This document shows, piece by piece, positions 47,477 to 63,405 of a stretch of DNA of 64,000 bases. The translations under genes and the position numbers were made by a program. The stretch covers positions 5,257-69,256 of the forward strand of contig WOZK01000010.1 in assembly GCA_011620275.1 (NCBI GenBank), written 5' to 3'. Position 1 is the first letter of the stretch. Every line of letters begins with the position of its first letter. The notes beneath the pieces are model-generated. The model did no database searches, was not told the origin of the DNA, and saw nothing but the letters and a program-made list of their open reading frames with translations. This stretch comes from Candidatus Omnitrophota bacterium (GTDB taxonomy: Bacteria > Omnitrophota > Gorgyraeia > Gygaellales > Profunditerraquicolaceae).

Positions 47477-48778
47477 ATGAAAAAATGGTATTTATTGTTT
47501 ACGGCGGCAGCGGTATTCGCAACAGCGCCGGTATCCAACGTCCGCGCCGGGGAGATCGACATCCTGCTGGATAAACTGGTTGATAAAGGAGTGCTTACCG
47601 CAGGGGAGGCGCGGCAGATAGCAGCCGAGACCAAGGAGGACGTTCGTAAAGAGGTCGCGGCCGGCAAGTCGGACATCCTGCCGAAATGGGTGCAGAACAC
47701 GAAATTGAAGGGTGATTTCCGCCTGCGTTATCAAATGGACCATGCCAAGAGTTCTCATAATCAAACAAAGAACAGACAGCGCGGACGCATCAGGGCGCGC
47801 CTGGGGCTTGAATCGAAAGTGAATGAGAAACTGCTCGTGGCGGTTGGAATAGCCACCGGCTTGAACGAATACACGACGTCCAACAAAGACACCATCCGTT
47901 CCACAAACCAGACGCTCGGCGCTTCCTGGTCTAAGAAGCCGTTTAACCTGGATTACGCCTACGCTAAATACACCCCGATGCCCGGGTTCGCGGTGATCGG
48001 CGGTAAAATGCTGCTTAAGGATGCGATTTGGGAGCCGGGCGACCTGATGTGGGATACCGATATTACCCCGGAAGGCGTGGCTTTTGATTTCGCCAGAAAT
48101 GTAAACAGCGATATGAGCGTTTTCCTGAAGAGCGGTTTCTTCCTGTTTGAAGAGATCAGCTCCAGCAACGACGACCCGTATTCCATACATATCCAGCCAG
48201 GTATGGACGTGAAGATCGCCGACGGTATCTCTCTGCGCGCTTCGGTGGCGGCAGACTATTTCCGGGTGCGCGATTTTACTTTAAAAGGCAGTTCGGTGAG
48301 CAACACCGGGTCGTATAAGAGCGGGGATAACAGCTACGCGGTCCCCATGGCAAACTACACCAATATAATGCCTGCCCTTGAATTGAAATTTAGCGATCCA
48401 TTCAAGGCGTTCCATATCAACGTGCCGCAGTTGAGACTCTTCGGAGAATACATCAGGAACTTCGCAGACATCGATCCTTACACCGGTAAGAGCGGTTATA
48501 TGCTCGGGTTCGGCCTCGGCGCCGACAAGGTCGCCAAATTCGGAGACTGGGTGTTGAAATATAACTACGCCAGGCTGGAAAAGAACGCCGTGCTTGATAT
48601 CCTGCCGGATTCCGACCGTTACGAGGGGAAGACCAATATCCGCGCGCACGAGATCGCGCTCGATTTCGGACTGGGTGAGAATACCTGGCTTGGCCTCGAC
48701 GTTTACAGAGCACAGTTGTTGACTGCTCCAAGAGCTCCTTCTACGGTAGTGCAGGTTGACTGGAATATGAAGTTCTAA
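47477..48778 (+). CDS. Outer-membrane beta-barrel porin, probably phosphate-selective (OprO/OprP-like)
   Basis: Signal peptide MKKWYLLFTAAAVFATAPVSNVRA, an N-terminal helical segment, alternating amphipathic beta-strand pattern, and a C-terminal aromatic (..VDWNMKF). Sits immediately upstream of pstS behind putative Pho boxes. Confidence 0.55.
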   Translation: MKKWYLLFTAAAVFATAPVSNVRAGEIDILLDKLVDKGVLTAGEARQIAAETKEDVRKEVAAGKSDILPKWVQNTKLKGDFRLRYQMDHAKSSHNQTKNRQRGRIRARLGLESKVNEKLLVAVGIATGLNEYTTSNKDTIRSTNQTLGASWSKKPFNLDYAYAKYTPMPGFAVIGGKMLLKDAIWEPGDLMWDTDITPEGVAFDFARNVNSDMSVFLKSGFFLFEEISSSNDDPYSIHIQPGMDVKIADGISLRASVAADYFRVRDFTLKGSSVSNTGSYKSGDNSYAVPMANYTNIMPALELKFSDPFKAFHINVPQLRLFGEYIRNFADIDPYTGKSGYMLGFGLGADKVAKFGDWVLKYNYARLEKNAVLDILPDSDRYEGKTNIRAHEIALDFGLGENTWLGLDVYRAQLLTAPRAPSTVVQVDWNMKF

Positions 48779-48841
48779 GCCAGGGTTGAAGCGGGATGCC
48801 CGGTGAAACGGACAACGAAAATAATTAAGGAGGAAAAACAA

Positions 48842-49657
48842 ATGAGAGCTAAAACGTTAATCTTATGCGCCGCCGCGGCGATCTTTCTGGCGGCAGCGGC
48901 ACCCTGTTACGCCGGCAAGGTCGTGGTGGAAGGTTCCACCACGGTATTGCCGATAGCCCAGCGCGCCGCGGAAGTCTTTATGGACGATAACCCGCAGGTA
49001 GACATTTCGGTGCGGGGCGGAGGGTCAGGGGTCGGCATAGCTTCTTTGCTGGCCGGCACCTGCGATATCGCCGATTCGTCCCGTCCCATAAAGGAAAAGG
49101 AACTTGAAGACGCTGTGAGCCGCGGCAAAGACCCCAAGGCTAACGTAATCGCGATGGACGGAATAGCCGTGATAGTAAACCCTTCCAATCCCGTCAAGTC
49201 CATGACTAAGAAACAGTTAAAGGATATTTATACGGGAAAGATATCTTCGTGGTCTGCCTTGGGAGGCAGCGGTTCGATAGTGGCGGTTTCCCGGGACAGC
49301 TCTAGCGGGACCTTTGAAGCGTTCGGCGAGCTCGCTCTGGACAAGGAGAAGGTTAGGCCGGACGCGCTTATGGAAGCATCCAACCAAGCTGTCGCCTCGG
49401 TGGTGGCCAAGACACCGGGCGCGATAGGTTACGTCGGGATCGGCTACATAAACGATTCCGTGAAGGCGCTTGAGCTTAACGGCGTCTATCCTTCCAAAGA
49501 AACGGTTTTGCGCAACCGTTATGCGCTTTCCCGTCCATTATTTATGTATACGAACGGCAAGCCTGACGGTGATTGCAAATCCTTTCTTGATTTCATCATG
49601 AGCAAACAAGGACAGATTCTGGTGGAAAAAGAGGGTTACATCCCGCTGGGCGGATAG
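48842..49657 (+). CDS. pstS: Phosphate ABC transporter substrate-binding protein PstS
   Basis: AAGGAGG RBS before ATG 48842. Signal peptide, then GSTTVLPIAQRAAEVF...GGGSGVGIASLLAGTCDIADSSRPIK..., the PstS family signature. Confidence 0.9.
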   Translation: MRAKTLILCAAAAIFLAAAAPCYAGKVVVEGSTTVLPIAQRAAEVFMDDNPQVDISVRGGGSGVGIASLLAGTCDIADSSRPIKEKELEDAVSRGKDPKANVIAMDGIAVIVNPSNPVKSMTKKQLKDIYTGKISSWSALGGSGSIVAVSRDSSSGTFEAFGELALDKEKVRPDALMEASNQAVASVVAKTPGAIGYVGIGYINDSVKALELNGVYPSKETVLRNRYALSRPLFMYTNGKPDGDCKSFLDFIMSKQGQILVEKEGYIPLGG

Positions 49658-49826
49658 CCGGGCCACGGAAGGCGTATAAGTGTAAACCATGTACCCGGTC
49701 TATAGTGTAAAGTATGTTACCAGTTTGTACCATTATCGCCTCTTCCGTCATCCTCCCCATCAAGGTGAGGAAAGAAGCGAATACTTGGCCTTCCGATAGG
49801 CCAAGGTAAATCCCCGGCACTCTACA

Positions 49827-49953
49827 GGGTACCCCTTAGATAAACTAAGGGCAAGTCTGAGCCGCATTTTCACACGAGTGAACACCTGCCTCTCCTTGAA
49901 GGCAGAGTGCTATTCCGAGAGGTAACCCGGCTTGATTAAGTATCGTGTCCCCG
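49827..49953 (-). repeat. 127-bp dispersed repeat, right (inverted) copy
   Basis: Reverse complement of 39782..39908 with about five mismatches. Ends 17 bp before the pstC start. Confidence 0.85.
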
Positions 49954-49969
49954 GAAGAAAAAATCTACT

Positions 49970-50860
49970 ATGAAAAGATTATTCTCCAAAGAAAGCGTTT
50001 ACGCCTCTGTCTTCGGCATACTGGCCTTTGCCTGTTTGATCTTTCTGGCGGGAATAACCCTGGTACTTTTTAAAGAAGGACTGCCGTTGTTCGCCAAGGT
50101 AAGCCTGTGGGATTTCCTTTCCGGTACCGCGTGGTATCCCACGCACGAAGACCCCGAGTTCGGGATACTGTCGCTGTTGGCCGGCTCGTTATGGGTTACC
50201 GCGGGAGCGATGCTGGTTTGTCTTCCTTTGGGCATAGGCAGCGCCCTTTATATAAACGAGATCGCCGGCAATACCCAGAAGGCGGTGTTGAAACCGCTGG
50301 TGGAATTGCTGGCGGGTATCCCTTCCATAGTGTTCGGTTTTTTCGGGATGGTGGTGGTCGCGCCGTTCCTGCAGAGGCTGCTGCATATTCCTACAGGGCT
50401 TTGCGCCTTTACCGCCAGCCTCATCCTGGGTATCATGGCGGTCCCCACTGTCTGCAGTCTTTCCGAGGATGCCTTGAGCTATGTTCCTGCCAGTTACCGG
50501 GAGGCGTCCCTTGCGCTCGGCGCCACCCGCTGGGAGACTTTAATCAAGGTCGTTCTACCGGCTGCCGGTTCAGGTATATCCACGGCCGCCATACTCGGTG
50601 TCAGCAGGGTGATGGGCGAAACGATGACGGTCCTGATGGTCTCCGGAGGGGCGGCTATAATCCCGCATTCTTTTTTTCAGCCGGTAAGGCCGTTGACGTC
50701 CACTATCGCCGCGGAGATGGGGGAGGCCGCCGTGGGCAGCACGCATTACCAAGCGCTCTTCGCCATAGCCATGGTGCTTTTCACGCTTACTTTCATTTTT
50801 AATATCGCCGCCGAGATCTTAAGCCGCAGATACCGGTTAAAGCTGGGAATACAAAGATGA
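49970..50860 (+). CDS. pstC: Phosphate ABC transporter permease PstC
   Basis: Six TM helices and the EAA-like loop ...LGATRWETLIKVVLPAAGSGI... Confidence 0.9.
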   Translation: MKRLFSKESVYASVFGILAFACLIFLAGITLVLFKEGLPLFAKVSLWDFLSGTAWYPTHEDPEFGILSLLAGSLWVTAGAMLVCLPLGIGSALYINEIAGNTQKAVLKPLVELLAGIPSIVFGFFGMVVVAPFLQRLLHIPTGLCAFTASLILGIMAVPTVCSLSEDALSYVPASYREASLALGATRWETLIKVVLPAAGSGISTAAILGVSRVMGETMTVLMVSGGAAIIPHSFFQPVRPLTSTIAAEMGEAAVGSTHYQALFAIAMVLFTLTFIFNIAAEILSRRYRLKLGIQR

Positions 50861-51804
50861 GAAGAAAGATTTGCGTTACAGGAGTCTTCCGGAAGCTTTT
50901 TGAGCGGACGTTCGCGCGGAGCGCCGGGAACGTTTCGGTATCGGCCGGATCCTATAGGAACAAGCAGGCCGCGCAGAAAGCCGGGTTTTTCCTGTTGTTC
51001 TGCTGTATCCTCGCGACGCTGCTGTTCCTCGGCAGTATCGTTTATTTCATTTTTGCGGGGGGAAGTAAAGTCGTCACTTGGGGTTTCCTCACCCAGTGGC
51101 CGCGCAACGCTATGACCGAAGGCGGGATATTCCCGGCTCTGTTGGGGACTTTTTATCTTACCCTTGGGGCGGTAACGGTCGCTTTACCGCTGGGGCTGGC
51201 GTGTGCCGTGTATCTATGCGAATATACGCCCGGCAGCCTGGCGCTTAACGCCATTCGCATCGGCATAAACAATCTTGCCGGAGTGCCGTCGGTCGTCTTC
51301 GGGCTTTTCGGCCTGGCGGTGTTTGTGAAATTCTTTGGTTTCGGGGTTTCGGTGCTTTCCGGGAGCCTGACTTTGGGAATACTTATTCTGCCGGGAATAA
51401 TATCGGCTTCACAGGAGGCGCTTATGGCCGTGCCTAATTCCCTCAGGGAGGCTTCTTTCGCTTTGGGAGCTACCCGCTGGCAGACAATCAAGAAAATAGT
51501 CGTCCCACAGGCGTTGCCGGGTATATTGACCGGCGTGATCTTGAGCATCGGCAGGGCGGCGGGCGAGACCGCTCCCATACTTTTTACCGCCGCGGCTTTT
51601 TATACGCGGAGGTATCCGCAGTCTCCGTTTTCTGAAGTCATGGCGCTGCCTTATCATATTTACGCCCTGATGACTGAAGGGACGCATCCGCGCCAGCAAA
51701 CGGTTATAGCCTACGGCAGCGCGCTGGTTTTGCTTATACTGGTGCTGCTGATTTCCGGGACCGCGGTTTTCATACGCCAGAGACATAGGAGTTACAATGG
51801 ATAA
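50857..51804 (+). CDS. pstA: Phosphate ABC transporter permease PstA
   Basis: ...[48 protein letters not shown]... Confidence 0.9.
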
Positions 51805-52558
51805 AGAAATAAGGATGCGCGCGGAAGGAGTAAACTTTTTTTACGGCAGCCGTCCGGCGTTGAAGGACGTCAACCTGGAGATATACCGTAACCAGGTCAC
51901 CGCGATAATAGGCCCGTCGGGATGTGGTAAGTCCACTTTTATCCGTCTGCTTAACCGGATGAACGATATGGTCCCCAAGAGCCGGCTTGAGGGCAGAATA
52001 TTTCTGGACGGAGATGATATTCACGACCCCGAGACGGACGTGGTGGATATCAGACGCAGGGTGGGGATGGTTTTCCAGAAGCCGAACCCCTTTCCGAAAA
52101 GCATTTTTGAGAATATCAAATACGGCCTGGAGATAAACGGGATGCGCGACAAGTCGGTTATAGAAGACAAGGTGGTGGATTCTCTGAAGAAAGCCGCTTT
52201 GTGGGAGGAGGTCAAGGGCAGACTCTACGACAGCGCGCTCAGGCTTTCCGGCGGTCAGCAGCAGCGGCTTTGCATAGCCAGGTGCCTGGCGGTTGAGCCG
52301 GAAGTCATACTTTTCGACGAGCCTTGCGCCAGCCTGGACCCGATTTCCACTGCCCGGATCGAAGAACTGTTGATGGAGCTCAAACAGGAATATACGATAG
52401 TGATCGTAACTCACAATATGCAACAGGCGGCAAGGGTCTCCGGTAACACCGCTTTCTTCCTACTGGGGGAGATTGTGGAGTTCGGCAAGACCCAGGATAT
52501 TTTCACAAAACCGCGGGACTCCAGGACAGAAGCGTATATCACGGGAAGATTCGGATAA
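51797..52558 (+). CDS. pstB: Phosphate ABC transporter ATP-binding protein PstB
   Basis: [32 protein letters not shown], and the PstB-specific C-terminus ...EAYITGRFG. Confidence 0.93.
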
Positions 52559-52639
52559 TCGGTTATCTTTTGCCCGGTCGCGATACTTTATTTCAGTTTC
52601 ACCGATGCTTTAATCGGATACGGCTATTACGACCCCTGC

Positions 52640-52790
52640 TTCATCTTTCTTGACTGTCATCCCTCCTTCATCCTCCCCATCGAGGGGAGGAAAGATTGGA
52701 GGTATCCATTGGGGAGGAAAGATAGCTTGAATTCTGTTGGTTACCGTAACCGAATTAAGTATCGTGTCCCCGGAAGAAAGGATGCGTGGA
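52640..52790. repeat. Mosaic repeat (Y module, with the inverted repeat CTCCCCATCGAGGGGAG, plus the X module) immediately upstream of phoU
   Basis: Near-identical copies at 63520..63636 and, in reverse complement, 8185..8275. Confidence 0.8.
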
Positions 52791-52791
52791 T

Positions 52792-53466
52792 ATGTTAAGA
52801 CATTTTGATTTGGAACTGGATGAGCTCAAGAGACAACTGTTGGGAATGGGAAGGCTGGTGGAGATGGCGATTTCCGCTTCGCTGGAGGCGCTGGAAACAC
52901 TGAATGCCGTCGCCGCCAGCAATGTCGTCGCCGCTGACCGCGCCATAGACGAACTGGAGAACGCACTTGATGAACGTTGTTTCGATCTGCTGGCGCTCAA
53001 ACAGCCCATGGCGGTTGACTTGCGTTTCATCGCCATGTCGATGAAAATATCCACCGATCTGGAAAGGATGGCTGATCTTGCCGTGGACATCGCCCAGAGA
53101 GTAATCGAGCTTGCCGGTAAACCGCTTCTGAAACCGCTGGTGGACATTCCCAAGCTTGCCGCGCTGTCCAAGCGCATGACCTCCGAGGCCCTTCTGGCGT
53201 TCGTGGAGAAAGACGCCGATGCCGCCGCGGGTATAATCATTATGGACAGGGAGGCGGACAGGTTGCGTAATCTAATCCAGAAGGAATTAATGGAAGATTT
53301 TATGGCCAAAGACACTTCGGTCGCCCCGCGCGCCATACCTTTGCTTTTGATCGCCCGCCACCTGGAGCGCATCTGCGACCACGCTACTAACATAGCCGAA
53401 GACGTGATTTATATGGTGCGTGCAGACATCGTCAAGCACCATCCGGAACGTCTGAATCCGGAATAA
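52792..53466 (+). CDS. phoU: Phosphate signalling complex protein PhoU
   Basis: MLRHFDLELDELKRQLLGMG... and two PhoU repeats (...ERMADLAVDIA... / ...ERICDHATNIAEDVIYMV...). Confidence 0.9.
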   Translation: MLRHFDLELDELKRQLLGMGRLVEMAISASLEALETLNAVAASNVVAADRAIDELENALDERCFDLLALKQPMAVDLRFIAMSMKISTDLERMADLAVDIAQRVIELAGKPLLKPLVDIPKLAALSKRMTSEALLAFVEKDADAAAGIIIMDREADRLRNLIQKELMEDFMAKDTSVAPRAIPLLLIARHLERICDHATNIAEDVIYMVRADIVKHHPERLNPE

Positions 53467-53657
53467 GCCACATCCTTGCCGCCGGCCGTTTTGCGGTGAA
53501 CCGGGGTGAGCTTTCCTCCCGGCGTGCCGCATGCCCTTCAATATTCCGCATACATTCGGTTCCGTCAGTGCAACAAAGAAGCCCGGGGTAATCCTTAGAC
53601 AAATTAATGACAAGTCCGGCTTGAAAGCCTGGAATTTCTGCGGTTTGATTAAAAGAG

Positions 53658-53702
53658 TTGACAGAATTCTGAAAAGCGGCATAATTAGTAATGGAAACCA
53701 TT
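53658..53702 (+). promoter_or_regulatory. Sigma70-like promoter (TTGACA, 16 nt, CATAAT) with a 5-3-5 palindrome AATGGAAACCATT in the leader: candidate Fur-family autoregulatory operator
   Basis: TTGACA at 53658-63, CATAAT at 53680-85, AATGG-AAA-CCATT at 53690-53702, which lies between the -10 box and the AAGGAGGAGG RBS. Confidence 0.45.
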
Positions 53703-53720
53703 TTCAATAAGGAGGAGGTT

Positions 53721-54191
53721 ATGCCGCGAGGTCATTGCAGGGGACAGTGGTGGTGGCGGGGAAGAGTCTATGGCTGCGGTTACCGGCTTACGGCCGGCAG
53801 AGAGGCTATCCTCGGCCTGCTTTCCACGTCCAAAGAACATATGAGTGCCGAGGATATCTATATGAAGATACATACCGCTTATTCCAATGTGGGGTTGACC
53901 ACGGTTTACAGGACTCTGGAGCTTCTTTCCGATCTCGGAATGATCTGCAAGCTGGATTTCGGTGACGGACGGGCCCGTTATGAGCTTGCCGAAGGGGTGC
54001 AGGGCGTTCGGCATCACCATCATCTGGTCTGTACGGGATGTAACAGGGTAGTCGAATACACCGACTTCATAGACAAAGAGGTCGAGCTTCTCAAAGAGAC
54101 GGAAAAAGGGCTGGAAGAGAAATATCATTTTAAGATCACGGGTCATGTTATCCAGTTTTCCGGTTTGTGCGATAGATGCAGCTGTAAATAA
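53721..54191 (+). CDS. Fur-family metalloregulator (Fur/Zur/PerR) with an unusual Cys/Trp-rich N-terminal extension
   Basis: ...LTAGREAILGLLSTSKEHMSAEDIYMKIH...VGLTTVYRTLELLSDLGMICK...HHHHLVCTGCNRVVEY...CDRC. Strong RBS before ATG 53721. The tracked ORF starts at 53691. Confidence 0.8.
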   Translation: MPRGHCRGQWWWRGRVYGCGYRLTAGREAILGLLSTSKEHMSAEDIYMKIHTAYSNVGLTTVYRTLELLSDLGMICKLDFGDGRARYELAEGVQGVRHHHHLVCTGCNRVVEYTDFIDKEVELLKETEKGLEEKYHFKITGHVIQFSGLCDRCSCK

Positions 54192-54230
54192 AACCATTTT
54201 GGGGGTTTCAACAGTCGAAAGGAAGCGCGT

Positions 54231-54486
54231 TATGCCGGGATTAGACGGAACAGGACCTGCCAGTCAGGGATCCATGACCGGCGGCGGCAGGGGATATTGC
54301 GCGGTCAATATGAAGGGCCAGGGAAAGGCGATGGCTGGATTCCGGGGAAGGGGCCGCGGATGCGGCGCCGGATACGGGAGGTTTTTCTACGGCGGCGGGC
54401 GTCCTTGCCGGATGCGGGCGGGCGGCCGGCCTGTGTTTCCGGGCGGCTTCGCAGGGTCTGCGTACCCTCAAGAGAAAGCGGAATAA
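54231..54486 (+). CDS. DUF5320-family small Gly/Arg-rich protein
   Basis: MPGLDGTGPASQGSMTGGGRGYC... matches the MPxxDGTGPxGxGPMTGRGxGYC N-terminus of the DUF5320 family, which is usually found beside NifX-like or Fe-S ATPase genes. Confidence 0.6.
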
Positions 54487-54601
54487 AATTTGTTCGGGTT
54501 TGAGCCCGGGAAGTTTCACTCGAAGCTTGGCGGTTTGAAGCAGCGGTCTGCTCATGGTTTCGACGCCGTCGAAGTATAGAATAAGAAAGGAGTTTCGCAT
54601 T

Positions 54602-54982
54602 ATGAGGATCGGGATCGTTCTGGAAGAGGATAAAGGGGTGCACGGTAATGTCTGCCCTCATTTCGCCCAAGCCGGTTTTTTTCTTCTGGCGGACATAGAC
54701 CCGGATAAGAAAAAGATCGTTCATCTGCGTACTGTTCCCAATACCGTATCTCACGGCGGAGGAGGGTGCGTAGCGGTTGAAGAGATATTGAAACACGGCG
54801 TCACTCATGTAATCGCCGGCGGCATGGGGTTTGCCGCTCAGCAGAAACTGGCGCAGTCCGGGGTCAAGGTCTTCGGATATTCCGGGAACGTGCAGAAAGC
54901 CCTGGATGATCTTATGAATAACGCGCTGGGCGGATTAGGCGCCTGCAAAGGGCACGGCGAAACAGGCGGATGCCTTCATTAA
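54602..54982 (+). CDS. NifX/NifB-C-terminal-like dinitrogenase FeMo-cofactor-binding domain protein (PF02579)
   Basis: MRIGIV...GNVCPHFAQAGFFLLADID...VTHVIAGGMGFAAQQKLAQSGVKVF. Confidence 0.65.
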   Translation: MRIGIVLEEDKGVHGNVCPHFAQAGFFLLADIDPDKKKIVHLRTVPNTVSHGGGGCVAVEEILKHGVTHVIAGGMGFAAQQKLAQSGVKVFGYSGNVQKALDDLMNNALGGLGACKGHGETGGCLH

Positions 54983-54999
54983 GGAAGAGGGTGTGAATT

Positions 55000-55377
55000 A
55001 TGAAGATATGCGTTACTTCTGAAGGAAAGAGCCTGGATTCTCCGGTCGATTCGCGGTTCGGCCGTTGCAGTAATTTCATATTTTTCGATACGGACACCGA
55101 AGGATTCGAGGCGCAAGAGAATTCCGGTTTTCAATTTCAGGGAGGCGCCGGCATACAGGCAGGACAACTGGCGGTTTCAAAAGGCGTCACGGCAGTGCTC
55201 ACCGGTAACGTCGGACCCAACGCCTACCGGGTTTTAGCGTCTGCCGGCATAAGCGTGTTCACCGGAGTCTCCGGGACGGTCAAAGAGGCTATTGAAGGTT
55301 ACAGGAACGGCAAATACAAGGCGGCGGAAGCGCCAAGCGTGGCTCTCAAGTCCGGCACGCAGGTTAAAAATGAATGA
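55000..55377 (+). CDS. Second NifX/NifB-like FeMo-cofactor-binding domain protein
   Basis: MKICVTSEGKSLDSPVDSRFGRCSNFIFFDTDT...VTAVLTGNVGPNAYRVLASAGISVF. Confidence 0.65.
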   Translation: MKICVTSEGKSLDSPVDSRFGRCSNFIFFDTDTEGFEAQENSGFQFQGGAGIQAGQLAVSKGVTAVLTGNVGPNAYRVLASAGISVFTGVSGTVKEAIEGYRNGKYKAAEAPSVALKSGTQVKNE

Positions 55378-55406
55378 GGAAGTGTCATATAAACGCAGAA
55401 TAACGT

Positions 55407-56054
55407 ATGCCGGTATGCGTATCGGAGATTTGCTCTGTGAATAAGAAAATCACGGATAATTACTGCAGATACCTGGAACGTCAGGCTCTTTACAAGAGTT
55501 TCGGCTACGGCGTGGAAAAGGAAAGGGACTTTATACTCGCCGCGGCCGCTCCGATTCGGGGCAGGATCATAGAGGCGGGCACGGGAAAAGGGCATTTCGC
55601 GCTCGCCCTGGCAAAGGCCGGTCATTCCTTCGTCAGCTTCGACATATCGGCGCAAGAGCAGTATTTCGCCGGGCTGCTGCTGGAATATTTCGGGCTGCGG
55701 GAGCGGGCCGACCTCAGGATAGAGAACGGTGAACGCACGTCTTTTCCTGCCGGCGCGTTCGATACCGTTTTTTCGGTCAACGTCCTGCATCATCTCTCCA
55801 ATCCTTATCTGGTCATTGACGAGCTTATCCGTCTGGTGTCGCCTGGGGGCAGGTTGGTACTGGCTGACTTCACGCCCGAAGGATTCAAGGTGATGGATAA
55901 AATACACAGTCTGGAAGGTAACGTGCATGAGACCGGCAAAGTCGGAATGGCGGAGGCGGAAACGTATCTTGTAAATATGGAATTTTCGATCGGGAAAGTT
56001 TCCAGCGTTTATCAAACCGTACTCGTAGCCGGGAAAAACGGCGGTGCGTCATGA
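55407..56054 (+). CDS. Class I SAM-dependent methyltransferase
   Basis: IIEAGTGKGHFALALA (motif I) ... VLHHL. Start codon choice is uncertain. Confidence 0.6.
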   Translation: MPVCVSEICSVNKKITDNYCRYLERQALYKSFGYGVEKERDFILAAAAPIRGRIIEAGTGKGHFALALAKAGHSFVSFDISAQEQYFAGLLLEYFGLRERADLRIENGERTSFPAGAFDTVFSVNVLHHLSNPYLVIDELIRLVSPGGRLVLADFTPEGFKVMDKIHSLEGNVHETGKVGMAEAETYLVNMEFSIGKVSSVYQTVLVAGKNGGAS

Positions 56055-56908
56055 TCATTTCGGTCGCCAGCGGTAAAGGCGGCACCGGCAAGACCACGAT
56101 TGCGGTCAACCTGGCGCTTTCTCTCGGGGATGTGCAGTTTCTCGACTGCGACGTGGAAGAACCGAACGCCCATATATTTCTGAAACCGCGTCTTACCGAC
56201 GAACGCAGGATCTTCGTCCCGGTTCCCGAAATAGACGAATCTAAATGCACTTATTGCGGCAAGTGTCGCGAGGTCTGCGCGTTTAACGCCATAGCGGTCC
56301 TGGGCGGAACCGGCCCGGGCGGAGGGAGCGTTCTTGTATTCCCTCATCTTTGCCACGGCTGCGGCGCCTGCAGTATTTTCTGTCCGGAAAAAGCGATAAA
56401 AGAAATCGGCAGGGAGATCGGGATGGTCGAGAGCGGAATTAGAGACGGGATGGGATTTGTCCATGGGCGGTTGAACGTGGGAGAAGCTATGTCTCCGCCT
56501 TTGATCAGGAAGGTCAAAGAGCGCGCGGATTCGGCAAGAACGGTAATCATTGACGCCCCCCCGGGGATATCCTGTCCGGTAATCACGGCGGTGGAAGGTA
56601 GCGATTTCTGCCTGCTGGTTACTGAACCCACGCCTTTCGGGCTCAACGATCTTGTCCTGGCGGCCGGGATGCTGCGCGAATTGAAAATACCTTTCGCGGT
56701 CGCCGTCAACCGCGACGGCATCGGCGACGGGAAAGTGGACGATTATTGCGCCGGGGAGAAAATCCCGATCTTGATGCGTATACCTTTCAGTAAAGAGATA
56801 GCCGGAGCGTATTCCCGCGGAGAACCGGCAGTTTCGCTGTTTCCGGAGCTTGCCGGGCAGTTTCGGGATCTTTTCTCGCGTATCAGGACCGTATCAGGCA
56901 GCAGTTGA
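56051..56908 (+). CDS. MinD/Mrp-superfamily P-loop ATPase with an inserted 2x[4Fe-4S] ferredoxin domain
   Basis: SGKGGTGKTT deviant Walker A. CTYCGKCREVCAFNAI and CHGCGACSIFCPEKAI. Confidence 0.8.
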   Translation: MIISVASGKGGTGKTTIAVNLALSLGDVQFLDCDVEEPNAHIFLKPRLTDERRIFVPVPEIDESKCTYCGKCREVCAFNAIAVLGGTGPGGGSVLVFPHLCHGCGACSIFCPEKAIKEIGREIGMVESGIRDGMGFVHGRLNVGEAMSPPLIRKVKERADSARTVIIDAPPGISCPVITAVEGSDFCLLVTEPTPFGLNDLVLAAGMLRELKIPFAVAVNRDGIGDGKVDDYCAGEKIPILMRIPFSKEIAGAYSRGEPAVSLFPELAGQFRDLFSRIRTVSGSS

Positions 56909-56949
56909 TCAAGACGCAGAAATCCCGGGTTTTCAGGGGAGCTTCATTT

Positions 56950-57294
56950 ATGATAGAGGAAGCAAGGAACAATTTCCTTGGGAAAACCGGTGCTCGTTAT
57001 AACTGCGCTCAAGCGGTGATCAAGGCGTATGCCGAACTGTTCGGCCTGCCGGCCGGAACGGTGGAGGCACATGCCGGTTTTGGGGGCGGTAATGCCCCGC
57101 ATGGTTATTGCGGCGCGTTGTATGCCGCTTTATACATTCTGGCGTTCAAAGACAGCGGAAAATCGCAAAAATGTAAAGATTTTTTTCGCGGACATTCAGG
57201 GGCGTTGACCTGCCGGGAAATAAGGTCTGGGAGAAAGATTACCTGTTTATCCTGCGTTGAGAAAGCCGCGGAATTCCTAAAAAGGGAGCTTTAA
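56950..57294 (+). CDS. C_GCAxxG_C_C-family-like small putative redox protein
   Basis: ...YNCAQAVIKAY...GYCGALYAAL...CKDFF...CREI...CLSC. The pattern of conserved Cys positions resembles PF09719. The tracked ORF's first 15 codons overlap a dispersed repeat. Confidence 0.45.
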   Translation: MIEEARNNFLGKTGARYNCAQAVIKAYAELFGLPAGTVEAHAGFGGGNAPHGYCGALYAALYILAFKDSGKSQKCKDFFRGHSGALTCREIRSGRKITCLSCVEKAAEFLKREL

Positions 57295-57302
57295 TAAGAG
57301 AT

Positions 57303-58154
57303 ATGAAGAAGATAGCAGTTGTCAGCGGCAAGGGAGGAACCGGCAAGACGGTGGTCGCCGCCTCTTTCGCCGCGTTGCCGGGGAGTAAGGTCATGGTAGA
57401 TTGTGACGTTGATGCCGCCGACCTGCATCTTTTGCTGCATCCGGAGGTCAAAGAGCGGCATGAATTCAGGGGCGGCAGTACTGCCGTCATCGACCGCGGA
57501 CTCTGCCGACAATGCGGTAAATGTTCTGCCGTCTGCAGGTTCAAAGCGGTGAAATCCGGCCCTCGTGTGGAACGTTTCTTTTGCGAGGGGTGCGGATTAT
57601 GCGCCCGTCTTTGTCCTTACGGGGCGATAAGCATGGGGGAGACCGTATCCGGAGAATGGTTTGTCTCCGACACCCGCCGCGGGCCTTTCGTGCACGCCAG
57701 GCTTGGCGTCGCGCAGGGGAATTCCGGCAGGCTCGTTGCGCAGATACGCCGGGCCGCCGAGCGTATCGCCGCCGAAGAGAAACTGGAATATGTCGTGATC
57801 GACGGCCCCCCAGGAATAGGATGCCCGGTGATAGCTTCTCTCTCTGGAGTAGACTGCGCCCTTGTCGTTACTGAACCTACGCTTTCCGGCCTGCATGACG
57901 CCCGGCGCGTCATGGAAACGGCAGCTCATTTCGCCATTCCGGTTAAACTGGCGGTAAACAAATACGACCTCAATCCGGAGATGAGCGGTGAGATAGAGGA
58001 TTTCTGCCGTGAAAATGGCATACAGTTCGCCGGTAGAATATCTTTCGACCCGGCCGTGGTCGAAGCGTTGTCCGCAGGGCAGACTATAATCGACAGCGGG
58101 AACCGCACCGTAGGAGATGAAATAAGGAAGATATGGGAACTCTTGATACGGTAG
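57303..58154 (+). CDS. Second MinD/Mrp-type ATPase with a 4Fe-4S ferredoxin insert
   Basis: SGKGGTGKT. CRQCGKCSAVCRF and CEGCGLCARLCPYGAI. Confidence 0.8.
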   Translation: MKKIAVVSGKGGTGKTVVAASFAALPGSKVMVDCDVDAADLHLLLHPEVKERHEFRGGSTAVIDRGLCRQCGKCSAVCRFKAVKSGPRVERFFCEGCGLCARLCPYGAISMGETVSGEWFVSDTRRGPFVHARLGVAQGNSGRLVAQIRRAAERIAAEEKLEYVVIDGPPGIGCPVIASLSGVDCALVVTEPTLSGLHDARRVMETAAHFAIPVKLAVNKYDLNPEMSGEIEDFCRENGIQFAGRISFDPAVVEALSAGQTIIDSGNRTVGDEIRKIWELLIR

Positions 58155-58268
58155 ATAAACCGGCCGCCGCTTTTTACGAACCTCATCCTTGAAAACCTCC
58201 GGCGTAATAATCGCCTGCCGCATCCGCCGGCTGCCTGCCGCGGAAAATCCTCTTTCTTTTTATTGAGC

Positions 58269-58291
58269 CTTGTCCGAACTTGTTGTATAAT
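58269..58291 (+). promoter_or_regulatory. Direct repeats CTTGTCC / CTTGTTG abutting a TATAAT: candidate PhoB-dependent (E. coli-type Pho-box-like) promoter for the second pst operon
   Basis: CTTGTCC at 58269, CTTGTTG at 58279, TATAAT at 58286-58291. About 95 bp upstream of pstS2. Confidence 0.3.
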
Positions 58292-58385
58292 TGCAGAGAA
58301 ATCGGTTGTTCTCCATAAAATACCGGATTAACGTTTTTTCTGCGCTTATGGATCGCCATTCCCGCCGGTCCTAAAAGGAGTCATA

Positions 58386-59237
58386 ATGAAAAGTCTGATA
58401 TTGTCTCTATTTTTTCTCGCCTGTTTCTCTGTCCAGTCATCGGCCGCCGTGAATAATTCGGTGCGGATAAAAGGGTCTGATACTATGGTCAACCTGGCGC
58501 AGTCCTGGGCCGAAAAATACATGGAGATAAAACCGGAAGTCTTTCTGGCCGTGACCGGCGGAGGCTCGGGCACCGGGTTCTCCAGCCTGATCAGCGGCAC
58601 CTGCGAGATCGCCATGAGTTCAAGGGAAATAAAGGAAAAAGAGATCGCTCTGGCGGAGAAAAGAGGCATACATCCTTACGAGATAAAGGTCGCCCTGGAC
58701 GGGCTGGCGGTGGTCGTCAATCCGCAGAACCCGGTAGAAAAGCTGACCATGGAACAGTTGGCCGGGATATTCACCGGCGCTATCCGCAACTGGAAAGAAT
58801 TGGGGGGGCATGACGAAAAGATCGTGGTGTTGTCCCGCGAGGTGAATTCCGGGACCCACGTTTATTTTAAAGAGCACGTTCTCAGGAGGGGCAACCCGCA
58901 GGGGACGGAGGAGTTCGCCCCTTCGGCGCTGTTATTGTCTTCTTCGCAGGCGATAGCGGACGAGATCGCCCAGAACCCGGGAGCCATCGGTTATTATGGC
59001 ATGGGATACGTCTGCGCCAAACAAAAGGCGGTCCTAGTGGCCAAGGACGCGAAGTCGCTTTATGAAGCCCCGACGATCGACAACGTGATAAGCGGCCGAT
59101 ATCCGATATCCAGGCCGCTCTTCTTTTATCTCAACGGCAGCCCGCAGGGGATGTTGAAGGATTTTATAGATTATTGTCTTTCCGGAGACGGGCAGGAGAT
59201 AGTGGTGAAAACCGATTTCGTCCCTTTAAAACGTTAG
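58386..59237 (+). CDS. pstS: Phosphate ABC transporter substrate-binding protein PstS (second copy)
   Basis: Signal peptide, then IKGSDTMVNLAQSWAEKYM...GGGSGTGFSSLISGTCEIAMSSREIK. Confidence 0.9.
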   Translation: MKSLILSLFFLACFSVQSSAAVNNSVRIKGSDTMVNLAQSWAEKYMEIKPEVFLAVTGGGSGTGFSSLISGTCEIAMSSREIKEKEIALAEKRGIHPYEIKVALDGLAVVVNPQNPVEKLTMEQLAGIFTGAIRNWKELGGHDEKIVVLSREVNSGTHVYFKEHVLRRGNPQGTEEFAPSALLLSSSQAIADEIAQNPGAIGYYGMGYVCAKQKAVLVAKDAKSLYEAPTIDNVISGRYPISRPLFFYLNGSPQGMLKDFIDYCLSGDGQEIVVKTDFVPLKR

Positions 59238-59243
59238 AAGTCT

Positions 59244-60110
59244 GTGCGTAAACTAAAAGAATTCGTCATAGAGAAACTGATACTCTTCTGCGGGTTGGCG
59301 TCCATCTTTTTCGTGGTGCTTATTTTTCTTTTCCTGCTTAAAGAAGGCCTGGCGGTTTTTAAAACGGTAACTCCTCCCCAATTTCTTTTCGGAAAAAGCT
59401 GGTATCCGATTTCCGAACCGCCTCATCTCGGCATCCTGCCGTTGATCTTGGGGTCTTTAATGGTCACGCTCGGCGCGGCACTGATCTCCATACCCATCGG
59501 CGTGGCCTGCGCTGTTTACATCGCGGAGGTCGCCCCCCTGAAAATAAAGGAAATACTTAAAAGCGGCATAGAACTACTGGCCGCCATCCCGAGCGTGGTC
59601 CTTGGGTTCATCGGTATGGTCACCATAGTTCCCTGGATAAAAAGCATTTTTCATCTTCCCACCGGCCTCACCGCGCTTTCCGGGGCGGTGATGCTGGCTT
59701 TTATGGCCATGCCTACCATAGTCTCCATCGCGGAGGATGCCCTTTATTCCGTGCCCAAGACATATAAGGAAGGGGCCCTCGCGCTGGGCGCCACTCACTG
59801 GCAGGCTATCCACAGGGTGATCCTGCCCGCCGCTTCCTCCGGCATAATGGCGGCGGTGATGTTGGGAATAGGCAGGGTCATAGGAGAGACCATGGCGGTG
59901 ATGATGATCACCGGAAACGCCGCGGTGATCCCGCATTCCATACTTCAGCCGGTGCGGACGCTCACCGCTACCATAGCCGCCGAGATGGGGGAGGCGGTGG
60001 TAGGCAGCGAACATTATTTCGCCCTTTTCGCCGTCGGCATCGTGCTGTTCGTGATAAGTTTCATCGTAAACGTGGGCGCCGACCTTTTTCTGCATAAGAA
60101 AGAACAATGA
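59244..60110 (+). CDS. pstC: PstC permease (second copy)
   Basis: ...LGATHWQAIHRVILPAASSGIMAAVMLGIGRVIGETMAV... Confidence 0.9.
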   Translation: MRKLKEFVIEKLILFCGLASIFFVVLIFLFLLKEGLAVFKTVTPPQFLFGKSWYPISEPPHLGILPLILGSLMVTLGAALISIPIGVACAVYIAEVAPLKIKEILKSGIELLAAIPSVVLGFIGMVTIVPWIKSIFHLPTGLTALSGAVMLAFMAMPTIVSIAEDALYSVPKTYKEGALALGATHWQAIHRVILPAASSGIMAAVMLGIGRVIGETMAVMMITGNAAVIPHSILQPVRTLTATIAAEMGEAVVGSEHYFALFAVGIVLFVISFIVNVGADLFLHKKEQ

Positions 60111-61015
60111 ACGATAGTAACGTCACGGAATGTCCGGCGTCGCCGGCGCTTAAATTGAAGAAGAGATCCAGGGACCCGGTTCTGACCCAGCGTCTGGCCT
60201 TCGCGTTCCTTTTTGTTTCCACTCTTCTGATCATCGTGCCGGTGGGATTGATCATAGTGATCATAGTCCAGAAAGGCCTGCCGGGGATAACCTGGCAGTT
60301 CCTTTCCGACATCCCCAGGCAGGGGATGCGCAGCGGAGGGATATTTCCGGCGATCCTTGGTACCATTTACCTGGTGAGCGGGGCCATCGTCTTCGCGTTA
60401 CCCATCGGGCTGCTCTCCGCCGTTTATCTCAGCGAATACGCCCGCGGGAATTTTCTTACCCGCCTGATAAAGCTCGCCATCGTCAACCTCGCCGGCGTGC
60501 CTTCCGTGGTCTACGGGCTTTTCGGCCTGGCGCTTTTCGTTACCTTTTTCAAGTTCGGGGCGTCGATACTCTCCGGGGCTTTGACGCTCGGGATAATGAT
60601 ACTGCCTATAATAATCACGGCTTCCCTGGAGGCGCTGGAGAGCGTGCCGCATTCTTTCCGCGAGGCGAGCCGTTCGCTTGGCGCCAGCAGGTGGCAGACC
60701 ATAAGATACGTGGTGCTTCCCAACGCCATCTCCGGGATAATCACCGGGACCATTCTCGGTCTAGGCAGGGCGGCGGGCGAGACCGCCCCCATACTTTTTA
60801 CGGTGGCGGCTTTTTATCTTCCGCAGCTTCCCGGCTCCATATTCGACCAGGTCATGGCGCTGCCGTATCACCTTTACGTCATTTCCACCCAGGTACCCAA
60901 TGTGGACGAGAAGATCCGTTACGGCACGGCGCTGGTGCTGCTTGCGATGGTGCTTTTTATGAACCTTGCCGCGGTGGTGATACGCTGCCGCTTCAGAAAG
61001 AAGAAGAAATGGTAG
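60107..61015 (+). CDS. pstA: PstA permease (second copy)
   Basis: ...[42 protein letters not shown]... Confidence 0.9.
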   Translation: MNDSNVTECPASPALKLKKRSRDPVLTQRLAFAFLFVSTLLIIVPVGLIIVIIVQKGLPGITWQFLSDIPRQGMRSGGIFPAILGTIYLVSGAIVFALPIGLLSAVYLSEYARGNFLTRLIKLAIVNLAGVPSVVYGLFGLALFVTFFKFGASILSGALTLGIMILPIIITASLEALESVPHSFREASRSLGASRWQTIRYVVLPNAISGIITGTILGLGRAAGETAPILFTVAAFYLPQLPGSIFDQVMALPYHLYVISTQVPNVDEKIRYGTALVLLAMVLFMNLAAVVIRCRFRKKKKW

Positions 61016-61755
61016 AGTTCCTCATAAAAGACCTGAACATCTGGTTCGGCCAGATACACGCCATGAAGAACGTGAACATGGAGATTGGCTCGAAACAGAT
61101 ATTGAGCGTGATCGGCCCGGCCAACAGCGGCAAGACGACCTTCCTGCGTATGCTTAACCGGCTTAACGAATTGAACGACAATTTCCGTATGACGGGGGAG
61201 GTGCTTTTCGGCGGCAGGGACATCGTCGAGATGGACCCGGAAACGGTGAGAAAAAAGATAGGAATGGTTTTCGCGCTCCCGCTTCCCTTGCCTATGTCGA
61301 TATTCGACAACGTTGCCTACGGGGTAAAAGTCTCCGGGGTTAGGAACAGGAAACTTCAGGCGGCTGCGGTAGAAAAGGCGTTGAAGCAGGCGTATCTTTG
61401 GGACGAGGTCAAAGACAGGCTGGACACCTCGGCTTTTAAACTCTCCGGCGGCCAGCAGCAGCGGCTTTGCATAGCCAGGACCTTGGCGGTGGAGCCGCGC
61501 GTCATTCTTTTTGACGAACCGTGTTCGGGGCTGGACCCGATCTCGACGGCCAAGGTGGAAGAGGCGATGCTCGTGCTCAAGAAGGATTATACGATAATCC
61601 TGGTTACCAATAACGTCAAGCAGGCCGCGCGCGTGGGGGACAGGACGGCCTTTTTCCTTTCCAGCGAGCTTGTCGAGATGGACGGCACGGATAAGATATT
61701 CACGGCGCCGCGGGACAAGCGCACCGATGATTACATAAGGGGGAAATTTGGATAA
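61009..61755 (+). CDS. pstB: PstB ATPase (copy 2a), with a divergent Q-loop/Walker B neighbourhood
   Basis: ATG 61009 overlaps the pstA stop. [33 protein letters not shown], ...DDYIRGKFG. The tracked ORF from 60691 is an antisense-style over-extension. Confidence 0.85.
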
Positions 61756-62506
61756 TCCGGCGATTCTGGTCAAGTCCCTCGATCTCTGGTACGGTGATTT
61801 CAAGGCGTTGAAGGGGATAAATGCATCCTTCCGCGGGAAGATGATTACTTCCATCATCGGCCCGTCGGGGTGCGGCAAGTCCACGCTTTTGCGCGTCTTC
61901 AACCGCATGAATGACCTGGCTGAGGGAGTGCGCACTTCCGGAGAGATTATTATAAACGGGGCGGATATCCTGCGCAGGGACGCCGACCTGGTGGCTTTGC
62001 GCAAGAGAGTGGGAATGGTCTTTCAGCGTCCGAATCCATTCCCGCTGTCCATATACGAAAACATCGTCTTCGGCGCGCGCATACACCTGGAGGCGAAGAA
62101 GAAAGATCTGGACTACCTGGTGGAGCAGAGCCTGCGCTCGGTACTGCTCTGGGATGAGCTTAAGGATAGGCTGGGCCGTTCCGCCCTGGGGCTTTCACTG
62201 GAGCAGAAACAGCGGCTTTGTATCGCGCGCCTGCTGGCCGTCAAGCCGGAGATACTGCTTATGGACGAGCCGTGTTCGGCGCTTGACCCGCAGGCTACCC
62301 AGCGTATTGAGGAATTGATGCGCGAGCTGAAGCGCGATTATACCATCGTGATCGTTACGCACAACATGCAGCAGGCGGCGCGCATCTCCGACGAGACGGG
62401 TTTTATCCTGATGGGGGAATTGGTGGAGTTCGGCAGGACGGAGACGATATTCACCAAACCGTCGGACCGCCGCACCGAAGATTACATAACCGGCAGGTAC
62501 GGATAA
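61748..62506 (+). CDS. pstB: PstB ATPase (copy 2b), tandem to copy 2a
   Basis: [20 protein letters not shown] ... [13 protein letters not shown] (signature motif LSGGQ replaced by LSLEQ) ... EDYITGRYG. Confidence 0.85.
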
Positions 62507-62736
62507 ATCCGGGGAGGGGCCGGTCTTGGCGGCGGTCGGCTACCGGAATATGTCTTGTGTGCTATACTATATAATATATGGCGGCCGCGCGGTGTTTTAA
62601 TCAGATTGCTGCTTCGGCAGGCGCACTGTCAAGACTTGCCGAAGAATGAGCAGTGGAGCGCCGGAATGACGCGGCTAAGCAGGATGGGCATTGAAGAATA
62701 CTAATTCCCGGATACGACAAGTTTGAAAGAGAGGTC

Positions 62737-63405
62737 ATGATGGAGAGACATTTTGACGAAGAACTCGCTAATCTGCGCAAAGGAATACTTAGGATGGCGG
62801 CCATGGCCCAGGAAGCCATTTTTAATTCGATCGAGGCGCTGAAGAACCGCGATAAAGGCCGTGCGCAGGCAGTGATCGATACCGACGACAAGATTGATAT
62901 GCTGGAACTGGAAGTGGACGAGAAGTGCATAGATCTTATAGCCAGGCACCAGCCGATGGCCGGAGACCTGCGGTTTATTACCACCGGGATGAAGATAAAT
63001 TCGGAACTGGAACGTATAGCTGACCTGGCCGTGGATATTTCCCAGCGCGTCCAGGACCTGATAGATAAGCCGATACTCAAGCCTTTGATAGACATCCCCA
63101 AGCTCTCCGTAGTGGCGCAGAATATGGTGCGGGACGCGATCGACGCTTTCGTGAAGCGCGACGTCTCCCTGGCCAAGCAGGTGATGTGCTCGGACTGCGA
63201 GGCGGATCGGCTGCGTAACCTCGTTCAGGAAGAGCTGATCAATGATTTCATGGCAAAGGACATCGGCACCGCTTCCAGGGCCGTGCCCTTGCTGCTCATC
63301 GCGCGCCACCTCGAGCGCATCTGCGACCACGCCACGAACATAGCCGAGGACATAATTTACATGGTAGAAGGTAAAGTGGTCAAGCATCATAGCGAGGATT
63401 TATAG
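62737..63405 (+). CDS. phoU: PhoU (second copy)
   Basis: MMERHFDEELANLRKGILRMA... plus two PhoU repeats. About 60% identical to the first PhoU. Confidence 0.9.
   Translation: MMERHFDEELANLRKGILRMAAMAQEAIFNSIEALKNRDKGRAQAVIDTDDKIDMLELEVDEKCIDLIARHQPMAGDLRFITTGMKINSELERIADLAVDISQRVQDLIDKPILKPLIDIPKLSVVAQNMVRDAIDAFVKRDVSLAKQVMCSDCEADRLRNLVQEELINDFMAKDIGTASRAVPLLLIARHLERICDHATNIAEDIIYMVEGKVVKHHSEDL

Follow-up and report, generated by a model that had tools for sequence, protein, structure and literature searches.

Orange protein (ORP) gene sets are widespread in anaerobes. To our knowledge, their function is still unknown, and they have been studied so far only in Desulfovibrio. The roles proposed for them are cell division and the trafficking of metalloclusters or Fe-S clusters. 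In E. coli, the suf Fe-S assembly operon is under the control of Fur. The classical Fur box is the 19-bp sequence GATAATGATAATCATTATC, which can also be read as the 7-1-7 repeat TGATAATnATTATCA. The ORP complex of Desulfovibrio comprises the paralogues Orp3 and Orp4, which carry two [4Fe-4S] ferredoxin motifs each, together with Orp5, Orp8 (ORP) and Orp9 (MrpORP), and has a putative involvement in cell division (PMC6345978). Its genes form two divergent orp operons driven by sigma-54, IHF and OrpR, an activator that senses redox potential via a [4Fe-4S] cluster (PMC8359166, PMC3897727). Here, we describe an ORP-type gene set headed by a Fur-family regulator. The window is a 64,000-nucleotide stretch of contig WOZK01000010.1 (positions 5,257 to 69,256, forward strand; assembly GCA_011620275.1) from an Omnitrophota bacterium. 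In it, one sigma-70 promoter and the eight same-strand genes downstream of it occupy 53658-58154 (+ strand), and the first of the genes encodes the regulator. Our data suggest that this is probably a metal-dependent, autorepressed operon under a dedicated Fur-family repressor, with Fe2+ as the favoured metal. The best-supported reading appears to be that an unusual Fur subfamily controls an unusual kind of target by the standard logic of Fur.

The regulator gene (53721-54191, + strand, 156 aa) is preceded by a -35 hexamer TTGACA (53658-53663, + strand) and, after a 16-nt spacer, a -10 hexamer CATAAT (53680-53685, + strand). With 11 of 12 positions matched in a promoter scan, this is the top promoter-like site across 52500-58500, and the promoter named in the first-pass annotation, an earlier reading of the same DNA, is thus confirmed. 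The operator, O1 (TAATGGAAACCATTTTCAAT, 53689-53708), is of the Fur-box type and begins 3 nt past the -10 box. It is followed by a ribosome-binding site (RBS), AAGGAGG (53709-53715, + strand), 5 nt ahead of the ATG. The start codon at 53721 (MPRG...), and not the one at 53691, is backed by the N-termini of more than 100 homologues. The first-pass annotation had read a 5-3-5 palindrome here, AATGGAAACCATT at 53690-53702. The palindrome does exist between the -10 box and the RBS, but the functional unit seems instead to be a 19-21 bp Fur-box-like element. O1 holds an imperfect 7-1-7 repeat, TGGAAAC-C-ATTTTCA (53692-53706), and the AATGG-AAA-CCATT arrangement is an overlapping sub-symmetry of it. 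Taken alone, the 13-mer is not significant, giving three matches in the window against 2.6 expected when one mismatch is allowed. An exact inverse copy of the 13-mer (AATGGTTTCCATT) is found at 8787-8799, inside an open reading frame (ORF, 8607-10160) for a 517-aa membrane protein. We rejected this copy as an operator, and it is most likely there by chance: its flanks differ from those of the operator, it has no promoter context, and it scores below 8 with the position weight matrix (PWM) described below.

The palindrome is more than chance because it is conserved across orthologous upstream regions. A scan with one genome per species gave 80 loci (numbered with the prefix L), from which 75 non-redundant upstream regions were compared after alignment on the start codon. 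The layout of promoter, operator and RBS is kept ahead of the orthologous regulators in about 60 of the 80 species genomes, across about a dozen anaerobic phyla. The promoter matches at 10 or more of 12 positions in 64 of the 75 upstream regions, with a TTGACA-type -35 box in the same relative place. In 54 of the 75, the box starts 2-3 nt past the -10 box, with GATAATGGAAACCATTTTCAATAAGGAG as a typical sequence, and AAGGAG comes after the operator in most orthologous loci. Overall, the element is conserved in at least 62 related loci. A 20-nt PWM derived from upstream regions of the orthologous regulators scores 35.7 at 53689-53708, while the best of 30 window shuffles reaches 20.6. The reverse complement of O1 scores 22.2, so the site is a dyad. 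Across 939 kb of related loci, PWM sites occur almost exclusively at two fixed positions beside the regulator gene. These results support the view that the palindrome belongs to a genuine, phylogenetically conserved operator. They also favour the autoregulation suggested earlier, since the conserved operator overlaps the predicted transcription start. The first-pass annotation had called for a search for additional copies of the palindrome; the PWM scan found no further operator scoring 8 or more in the 64-kb window.

The operator resembles a Fur box where it is most conserved. With two upstream consensus bases added, O1 agrees with the classical 19-bp box at 15 of 19 positions in our own alignment to the textbook consensus. 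The positions of highest information in the 28-nt consensus are A4, T6, G7, A10, A11, T15, T16, C19 and A20. All of them agree with the classical Fur box except A20, which lies outside the 19 bp. At four loci (L047, L087, L050 and L024) the element is a nearly canonical Fur box, and some other loci carry a perfect 7-1-7 repeat, TGAAAATnATTTTCA. Judged by its sequence, the element belongs to the general Fur/Zur operator class, and sequence alone does not name the metal.

Pfam, the solved-structure search and the predicted fold agree on the regulator as a Fur-family protein, as had been proposed. PF01475 matches residues 20-145 at 105.5 bits (cut-off 23.1). The best solved-structure match is Fur from B. 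cereus (9IRE, E = 1e-30), followed by C. jejuni Fur (1e-21). The AlphaFold2 (AF2) model has the canonical Fur fold, with a mean predicted local distance difference test score (pLDDT) of 79 and values of 80-93 over most of the body. Foldseek with this model returns Fur structures at E = 4e-14 and template-modelling (TM) scores of 0.6-0.7. The top Foldseek match, 9A4A, is a model of a YlaN-Fur complex, a reminder that partner proteins control some Furs. Among 121 sequences, H40, E88, H98-H101, E120, H142 and C104/C107/C150/C153 are invariant. Thus, an HHxH followed by CxxC, and a C-terminal CxxC (the Cys4 structural Zn site), are present throughout. The invariant His and Glu residues and the CxxC pairs align with conserved residues of C. 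jejuni Fur, which we take to be its metal ligands. Both Fur regulatory sites retain all their N/O ligands and the Cys4 zinc site is intact, which favours Fe2+ (or Mn2+). This gives a tentative case for iron sensing, which comes from the ligands and not from orthology.

The regulator scores below the cut-off of every Fur, PerR and Zur equivalog in NCBIfam. For the Fur models NF051892 (Bacillus Fur), NF006999 and NF051891, the scores are 131, 81 and 68 bits, with cut-offs of 220, 146 and 200, respectively. The best PerR model gives 76 bits against 180, and the Zur equivalog NF008646 gives 36.6 bits against 167. By these scores, the regulator is a member of a separate Fur subfamily and not an orthologue of a characterised sensor. 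Its database relatives number more than 1,400, and the top 120 match it in length, with identities of 63-92%. In some genomes, as in L002 (7281-7721) and in L017, ~7.7 kb downstream of the regulator, a second and distant Fur paralogue (~31% identical) lies near the cluster regulator, and in L002 it is divergently transcribed from it. The presence of this second paralogue shows that the cluster regulator is an extra, dedicated one. The 64-kb window itself contains no Fur gene besides the regulator.

Taken together, the promoter, the operator and the ligands suggest a simple mechanism. The first gene of the operon would encode the dedicated repressor. Its dimer, loaded with a metal co-repressor, would bind the ~20-bp O1, which covers the predicted transcription start, and O1 occupancy would block RNA polymerase. 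In this way, the regulator would repress its own gene and the seven downstream genes. Loss of the co-repressor would derepress the operon, and a machine for metallocluster handling or trafficking would then be produced in response to metal status; this function of the ORP-like proteins is one that we infer. The steps differ in how firmly they can be held. Binding of the regulator to O1 is very likely, and its action as a repressor is likely too. The choice of Fe2+ as the effector is tentative, a little short of an even chance.

In most related loci, O1 is not the only operator. About 56-60 of them carry a full second Fur-box-type operator, O2, 20-30 nt past the regulator stop codon. It lies mostly after a TATATTTTTTT tract and before the RBS of the DUF5320 gene. 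O2 is found in L006 and L009-L087, between the regulator and DUF5320 genes and in either orientation. No sigma-70 promoter was found ahead of O2 in the related loci, where the mean score is 7.3/12 against 6.5/12 at random positions. We likewise rejected an intrinsic terminator past the regulator gene of these loci: a T-run follows in 48 of 84, and the hairpin before it is overall no stabler than in shuffles (-3.5 versus -2.6 kcal/mol). O2 may act as a roadblock, a loop partner or a weak internal promoter. In the window, a possible O2 relic (TAAATAAAACCATTTTGGGG, 54186-54205) overlaps the regulator stop codon. It agrees with the consensus at 14 of 20 positions, has a PWM score below 8 and is probably non-functional. 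Since O2 is absent here, the whole cluster in this genome seems to depend on the single O1-controlled promoter. No internal promoter or terminator was found within the operon, and no convincing terminator was seen at its borders in the window. Two related loci depart from the usual arrangement. In L147 (17-1203) the order is operator, DUF5320, regulator. In L120 (5173-8927) an operator stands ahead of NifX and ATPase genes, and a more distant Fur gene (39% identical) ends the cluster.

The genes downstream of the regulator, all on the + strand, point to the ORP complex. Pfam confirms all eight domain calls of the first-pass annotation, and intergenic gaps of 40, 115, 17, 29, -4, -4 and 8 nt bear out the tight packing it described. 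The DUF5320 gene (54232-54486, 84 aa; PF17253, 36.2 bits against a gathering score of 27) encodes a short form of the family, and its match spans only profile positions 1-57 of 99. The protein starts MPGLDGTGP, continues with an RG-rich stretch and is without the C-terminal coiled-coil part of the family. The first of two NifX-like proteins (54602-54982; Nitro_FeMo-Co, 64 bits) has a C-terminal tail with Cys and matches 1RDU, 2YX6 and 2WFB in the PDB. The second (55000-55377; Nitro_FeMo-Co, 81 bits) is the ORP/Orp8 homologue. Its best PDB match is D. gigas ORP (2WFB, E = 1.6e-18), and it covers the full length (residues 2-112). A class I S-adenosylmethionine (SAM)-dependent methyltransferase follows (55407-56054; Pfam Methyltransf_11/23/25), with weak NCBIfam matches to CpaM and the DVU_1556 family. 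The two MinD/ParA-type ATPases of the Orp3/Orp4 type (paralogue 1, 56051-56908; paralogue 2, 57303-58154; both CbiA, ParA and Fer4 in Pfam) have a P-loop domain with an inserted 2x[4Fe-4S] ferredoxin domain and are 36% identical to each other. The deviant Walker A motif GKGGTGKT can be read in the translation of paralogue 1. Between the two ATPase genes lies a lineage-specific insertion, a gene for a C_GCAxxG_C_C protein (56905-57294; PF09719, 52 bits), which matches the DVU_1555 family weakly. Judging by their locus numbers, the DVU_1556 and DVU_1555 families would be adjacent in D. vulgaris, which hints at a recurring gene pair. In the window, an ATPase gene stands between the methyltransferase and C_GCAxxG_C_C genes.

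It was partial NCBIfam matches to MrpORP that pointed to the orange protein complex of Desulfovibrio. In the window, MrpORP itself is represented by nothing beyond partial NF041136 matches (30-52 bits against a cut-off of 450), and the window has no third P-loop gene for it. By homology, the downstream gene set is of the ORP type, with two Orp3/Orp4-type ATPases, an ORP/Orp8 homologue, a second NifX-like protein and DUF5320. It had been described earlier as a recurring but functionally uncharacterised set of anaerobe genes. It does recur, but it is not wholly uncharacterised, given its match to the Desulfovibrio ORP genes (2WFB; PMC6345978).

The linkage of regulator and gene set is conserved as well. 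We counted same-strand genes within 8 kb at 55 species-level loci whose sequence runs on for 4 kb or more past the regulator. A NifX-like gene together with both ATPase paralogues follows the regulator at 44 of them, each ATPase paralogue at 45, and a DUF5320-like gene at 46. The methyltransferase is found at 28 and the C_GCAxxG_C_C gene at 2. The adjacency whose conservation had been left to a neighbourhood check is thus kept in 44-46 of 55 loci and in about a dozen phyla. Among these are Omnitrophota, Planctomycetota, Atribacterota, Nitrospirota/Thermodesulfovibrionales, Syntrophaceae, WOR-3, TA06, Elusimicrobiota, Calditrichota, Spirochaetota, Lentisphaerae and Clostridia. The neighbourhoods of four homologues, in unrelated contexts, show the same order: Fur, DUF5320, NifX, NifX, methyltransferase, ATPase, (C_GCAxxG), ATPase. 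The closest of the 80 loci comes from the metagenome-assembled genome 'Candidatus Undivivens industriae' (Omnitrophota), with a regulator 93% identical to that of the window. Judged by this linkage, the core module is regulator, DUF5320, NifX-like protein and two ATPases. The methyltransferase is accessory and the C_GCAxxG_C_C gene is rare. Some related clusters additionally carry NifU_N, radical SAM, HypA and FeoAB genes. In the library searched, we found no paper tying Fur to orp, NifX-like or MinD-Fe-S clusters.

Several observations weigh against an iron-responsive repressor of the classical kind. In its consensus, TGAAAAYnATTTTCA, the operator resembles actinobacterial Zur boxes, which we take to be of the TGAAAATnATTTTCA type, no less than it does the Fe-Fur box; the half-sites are nearly identical. 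Identical 20-mers precede zinc-uptake genes elsewhere: exact matches to TAATGRAAAYCATTTTCAWT occur in at least 120 stretches of metagenome contigs. Among the 120 matches listed, 35 lie just upstream and 18 just downstream of a regulator of this type (53/120), and several more precede DUF5320 genes. Many others among those listed precede genes for ZnuA, ZIP transporters, TonB receptors and other Fur paralogues in unrelated organisms. ZnuA, ZIP and TonB-receptor genes are typical Fur/Zur targets, and these sites, like those beside the regulator, speak for an operator of this class. In addition, most homologues have Asp, as in PerR, at one site-2 position, and the protein falls below every equivalog cut-off, as described above. 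The ORP genes of Desulfovibrio answer to redox potential and not to iron (PMC8359166). The ORP-like proteins are themselves iron-rich, so it is not obvious why a cell short of iron should induce them. O2 is missing from the window and from its closest relatives (L001 and L008), so control of this operon may depart from what is usual in the family. Lastly, what is visible of the regulon is bounded by an operator scan that covered 64 kb of the genome. As for the metagenome matches away from this type of regulator, they come from unrelated organisms and are uninformative about the regulon of this regulator, and we did not count them as its members.

These observations might be accommodated by the same architecture with another signal, the regulator being a Zur-, Mur- or Nur-like sensor of Zn2+, Mn2+ or Ni2+, or a PerR-like sensor of peroxide or redox state. 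The Zur-like consensus and the 20-mers ahead of ZnuA and ZIP genes would fit such a sensor, as would the small zinc-ribbon proteins and the HypA genes of related clusters. Redox control of the orp operons in D. vulgaris Hildenborough (DvH) would make a PerR-like sensor a parallel to OrpR (PMC8359166). The protein itself argues for Fur. Its regulatory-site ligands H40 and E88 are of the Fur type, and E88 is a Glu in the place where a Zur would have Cys. The Cys-type site is that of the Zur structures of M. tuberculosis and S. coelicolor. In PerR, the acidic ligands are Asp at both positions (D85 and D104 in B. subtilis). The first of these positions is the invariant E88 in this subfamily. At the second, position 112, Asp prevails among the homologues, and the window protein has a Glu that aligns with the conserved His/Glu set of C. 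jejuni Fur. The order of similarity is Fur (131 bits), PerR (76) and Zur (37), and the PDB ranking agrees. The half-sites of the operator are nearly those of a Zur box, but the window regulator has no Cys-containing Zur site and stays closer to Fur than to Zur. We regard a different signal as unlikely, and a Fur-type metal-dependent repressor remains our preferred reading.

The N-terminus of the regulator raises a different question. Residues 1-21 of the window protein read MPRGHCRGQWWWRGRVYGCGY, and across 114 sequences the consensus MPRGxCxGxGWWHGKFRGCGYRLT is conserved. The two Trp of the WW pair are kept in 113 and 111 of 114, the Gly after WWH in 113, the Phe in 106, the second Cys in 107 and the Tyr-Arg in all 114. 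The first-pass annotation had called this segment an unusual Cys/Trp-rich extension. The extension is real and the Trp residues are kept, but it is better described as a Gly/Arg/Trp-rich signature of the whole subfamily, with one well-conserved Cys. The first Cys is found in only 69 of 114, so a four-Cys cluster bridging the two tails of a dimer is unlikely as a general feature. In the AF2 model, residues 1-9 are disordered (pLDDT 43) and residues 10-17 form a short helix of moderate confidence. This helix replaces the end of Fur helix alpha-1, which is consistent with the 9IRE alignment.

A subset of homologues starts MPxRDGTGPPWWHG, and MPxxDGTGP is the N-terminal signature of DUF5320 proteins. 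The first nine residues match the DUF5320 N-terminus in 11 of 84 regulators with a strict pattern and in 32 of 114 with a relaxed one. In a hidden Markov model (HMM) search of 5,088 ORFs, the regulators were the first non-family matches (~14 of the next ~33, by hand count), and the Pfam DUF5320 model matched 2 of 27 regulators at E = 0.03. The resemblance extends to the DNA: when the regulator and DUF5320 genes of one locus are compared over their first 30 nt, identities average 15.6, and controls average 9.6 (maximum 16). A profile-profile comparison of the whole N-terminal segments (hhalign) was not significant (P = 0.09). We therefore rejected homology of the whole segment to DUF5320, and the link is supported only by the first nine residues of the subset and the first 30 nt. 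The regulator gene may have acquired its operator, RBS and MPxxDGTGP as one module, through a duplication from the DUF5320 gene. A third small family of ~70 aa occurs in related clusters (for example L044:1961-2191, L006:9896-10102 and L011:2655-2876). Its members have an MPxGDGTGP N-terminus, an RG-rich stretch and a zinc ribbon (CxCPxCG...CPxCG). They give only sub-threshold matches to DUF5320 in Pfam, and the window has none of them. Our literature search found no paper on the function of DUF5320.

These tails suggest another way in which the operon could be controlled. The N-terminal tail of the regulator might dock on the cluster ATPases or NifX-like proteins, so that some or all of the control would take place at the protein level and transcription would report the state of the ORP machine. 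In this case, the MPxxDGTGP motif and RG-rich stretch common to the regulator, DUF5320 and the zinc-ribbon protein would be a docking or activating peptide for the ATPases or the NifX-like carriers. The likeness to DUF5320 at both protein and DNA level fits this proposal, as does the predicted disorder of the tail. In addition, the deviant Walker A motif of the ATPases is of the kind seen in partner-stimulated ParA/MinD proteins, and the YlaN-Fur model is a precedent for a Fur partner protein. The tails of ParG, ParB, MinE and McdB offer an analogy, in that a DNA-binding repressor and a small coiled-coil protein, both with a basic and disordered N-terminal tail, would be encoded beside deviant-Walker-A ATPases. 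This is an analogy only, and there is no sequence similarity. On the other side, the whole segments do not align significantly, and the tail of the window protein, MPRGHCRGQ, retains only MPRG..G of the motif. The resemblance could also be a functionless relic of the duplicated operator-RBS-start module. On balance, we find docking doubtful, and the docking peptide equally so.

The flanks of the cluster had prompted a proposal of coordinated metal and phosphate homeostasis. The cluster does lie between two phosphate operons. The upstream one (47477-53466) carries a porin-like gene, pstS, pstC, pstA, pstB and phoU, and the downstream one (58386-63405) carries pstS, pstC, pstA, two pstB paralogues and phoU. 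Between the operons, the PhoU proteins share 57% identity and the PstS proteins 45%. A functional tie between the cluster and these operons is nevertheless very improbable. The arrangement recurs only in the closest relatives, L001 and L008, whose regulators are 84% and 93% identical. Genes for pst or phoU lie nearby in just 1 of the 55 species-level loci, the cluster occurs in at least four unrelated contexts elsewhere, and neither pst operon has a copy of the operator nearby. Phosphate-transport genes at the flanks are peculiar to this lineage. Just 5' of the first phosphate-transport operon is a 2219-aa ORF with a TTG start (40617-47276, + strand). It is hardly credible that the conserved element acts in the 5'-leader RNA, for instance as a riboswitch or translational operator: it does lie within the predicted 5' untranslated region and abuts the RBS, but Rfam returns nothing for it even at E = 1, the leader is no stabler than shuffled sequences (z = -0.88), the conserved positions are those of the Fur box, and scoring on both strands together with a second copy in either orientation marks a dyad protein site and not an RNA element.

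With the autorepressed Fur-type operon as the preferred reading, the locus has several implications. A dedicated Fur-family repressor and a conserved operator head an ORP-type module in about a dozen mostly uncultivated phyla. This suggests a tie between metal status and the expression of the module, and it offers a regulatory handle, one small protein and one 20-bp site, on a gene set of unexplained function. The analysis also defines a large Fur subfamily in which the N-terminus is remodelled and which counts more than 1,400 relatives in the database, and it points to a short N-terminal motif common to the regulator and to DUF5320, a family without known function. In annotation, the label of a general 'ferric uptake regulator' should be avoided for such genes. 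If tail docking were true, the repressor would be wired to the ORP machine, and transcription would report loading or nucleotide state in addition to free metal. A Fur-family member would then be under the control of partner proteins through a borrowed tail.

Compared with classical Fur from E. coli, B. subtilis and B. cereus, the regulator has the same fold, His/Glu regulatory-site ligands and Cys4 zinc site. The operator is likewise placed over the -10 to +1 region of a sigma-70 promoter, the gene would be autoregulated, and the most conserved operator positions are Fur box positions (15/19). In contrast, helix alpha-1 and the N-terminus are replaced here by the Gly/Arg/Trp-rich MPRGxCxGxGWWHGKFRGCGYR, and the protein stays below the Fur equivalog cut-offs. 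The centre of the operator is GGAAACC, whereas that of the classical box is GATAATC. The regulon, as far as it is visible, is local to its own cluster and not global, and most members of the family carry a second operator past the regulator stop codon. A functional analogy can be drawn with the Fur-repressed suf operon of E. coli, where an ATPase-containing machine for metal-sulfur clusters is under metal-responsive Fur control. The proteins are unrelated, however, and suf has no dedicated Fur paralogue at its head. The nearest relatives of the gene set itself are the orp3-4-5 and orp7-8-9 operons of D. vulgaris. The window resembles them in its two paralogous MinD-type ATPases with two [4Fe-4S] motifs each (compare PMC6345978), in its ORP/Orp8 homologue with a second NifX-like protein, and in a gene set that is specific to anaerobes. 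Unlike D. vulgaris, it has no fusion of the MrpORP kind (Orp9; Mrp/NBP35 fused to Di-Nase), and in its lineage it carries extra methyltransferase and C_GCAxxG_C_C genes. No gene for an enhancer-binding protein adjoins the cluster. Where D. vulgaris has two divergent sigma-54 operons under the redox-sensing activator OrpR, the window has one co-directional sigma-70 operon under a putative Fur-family repressor.

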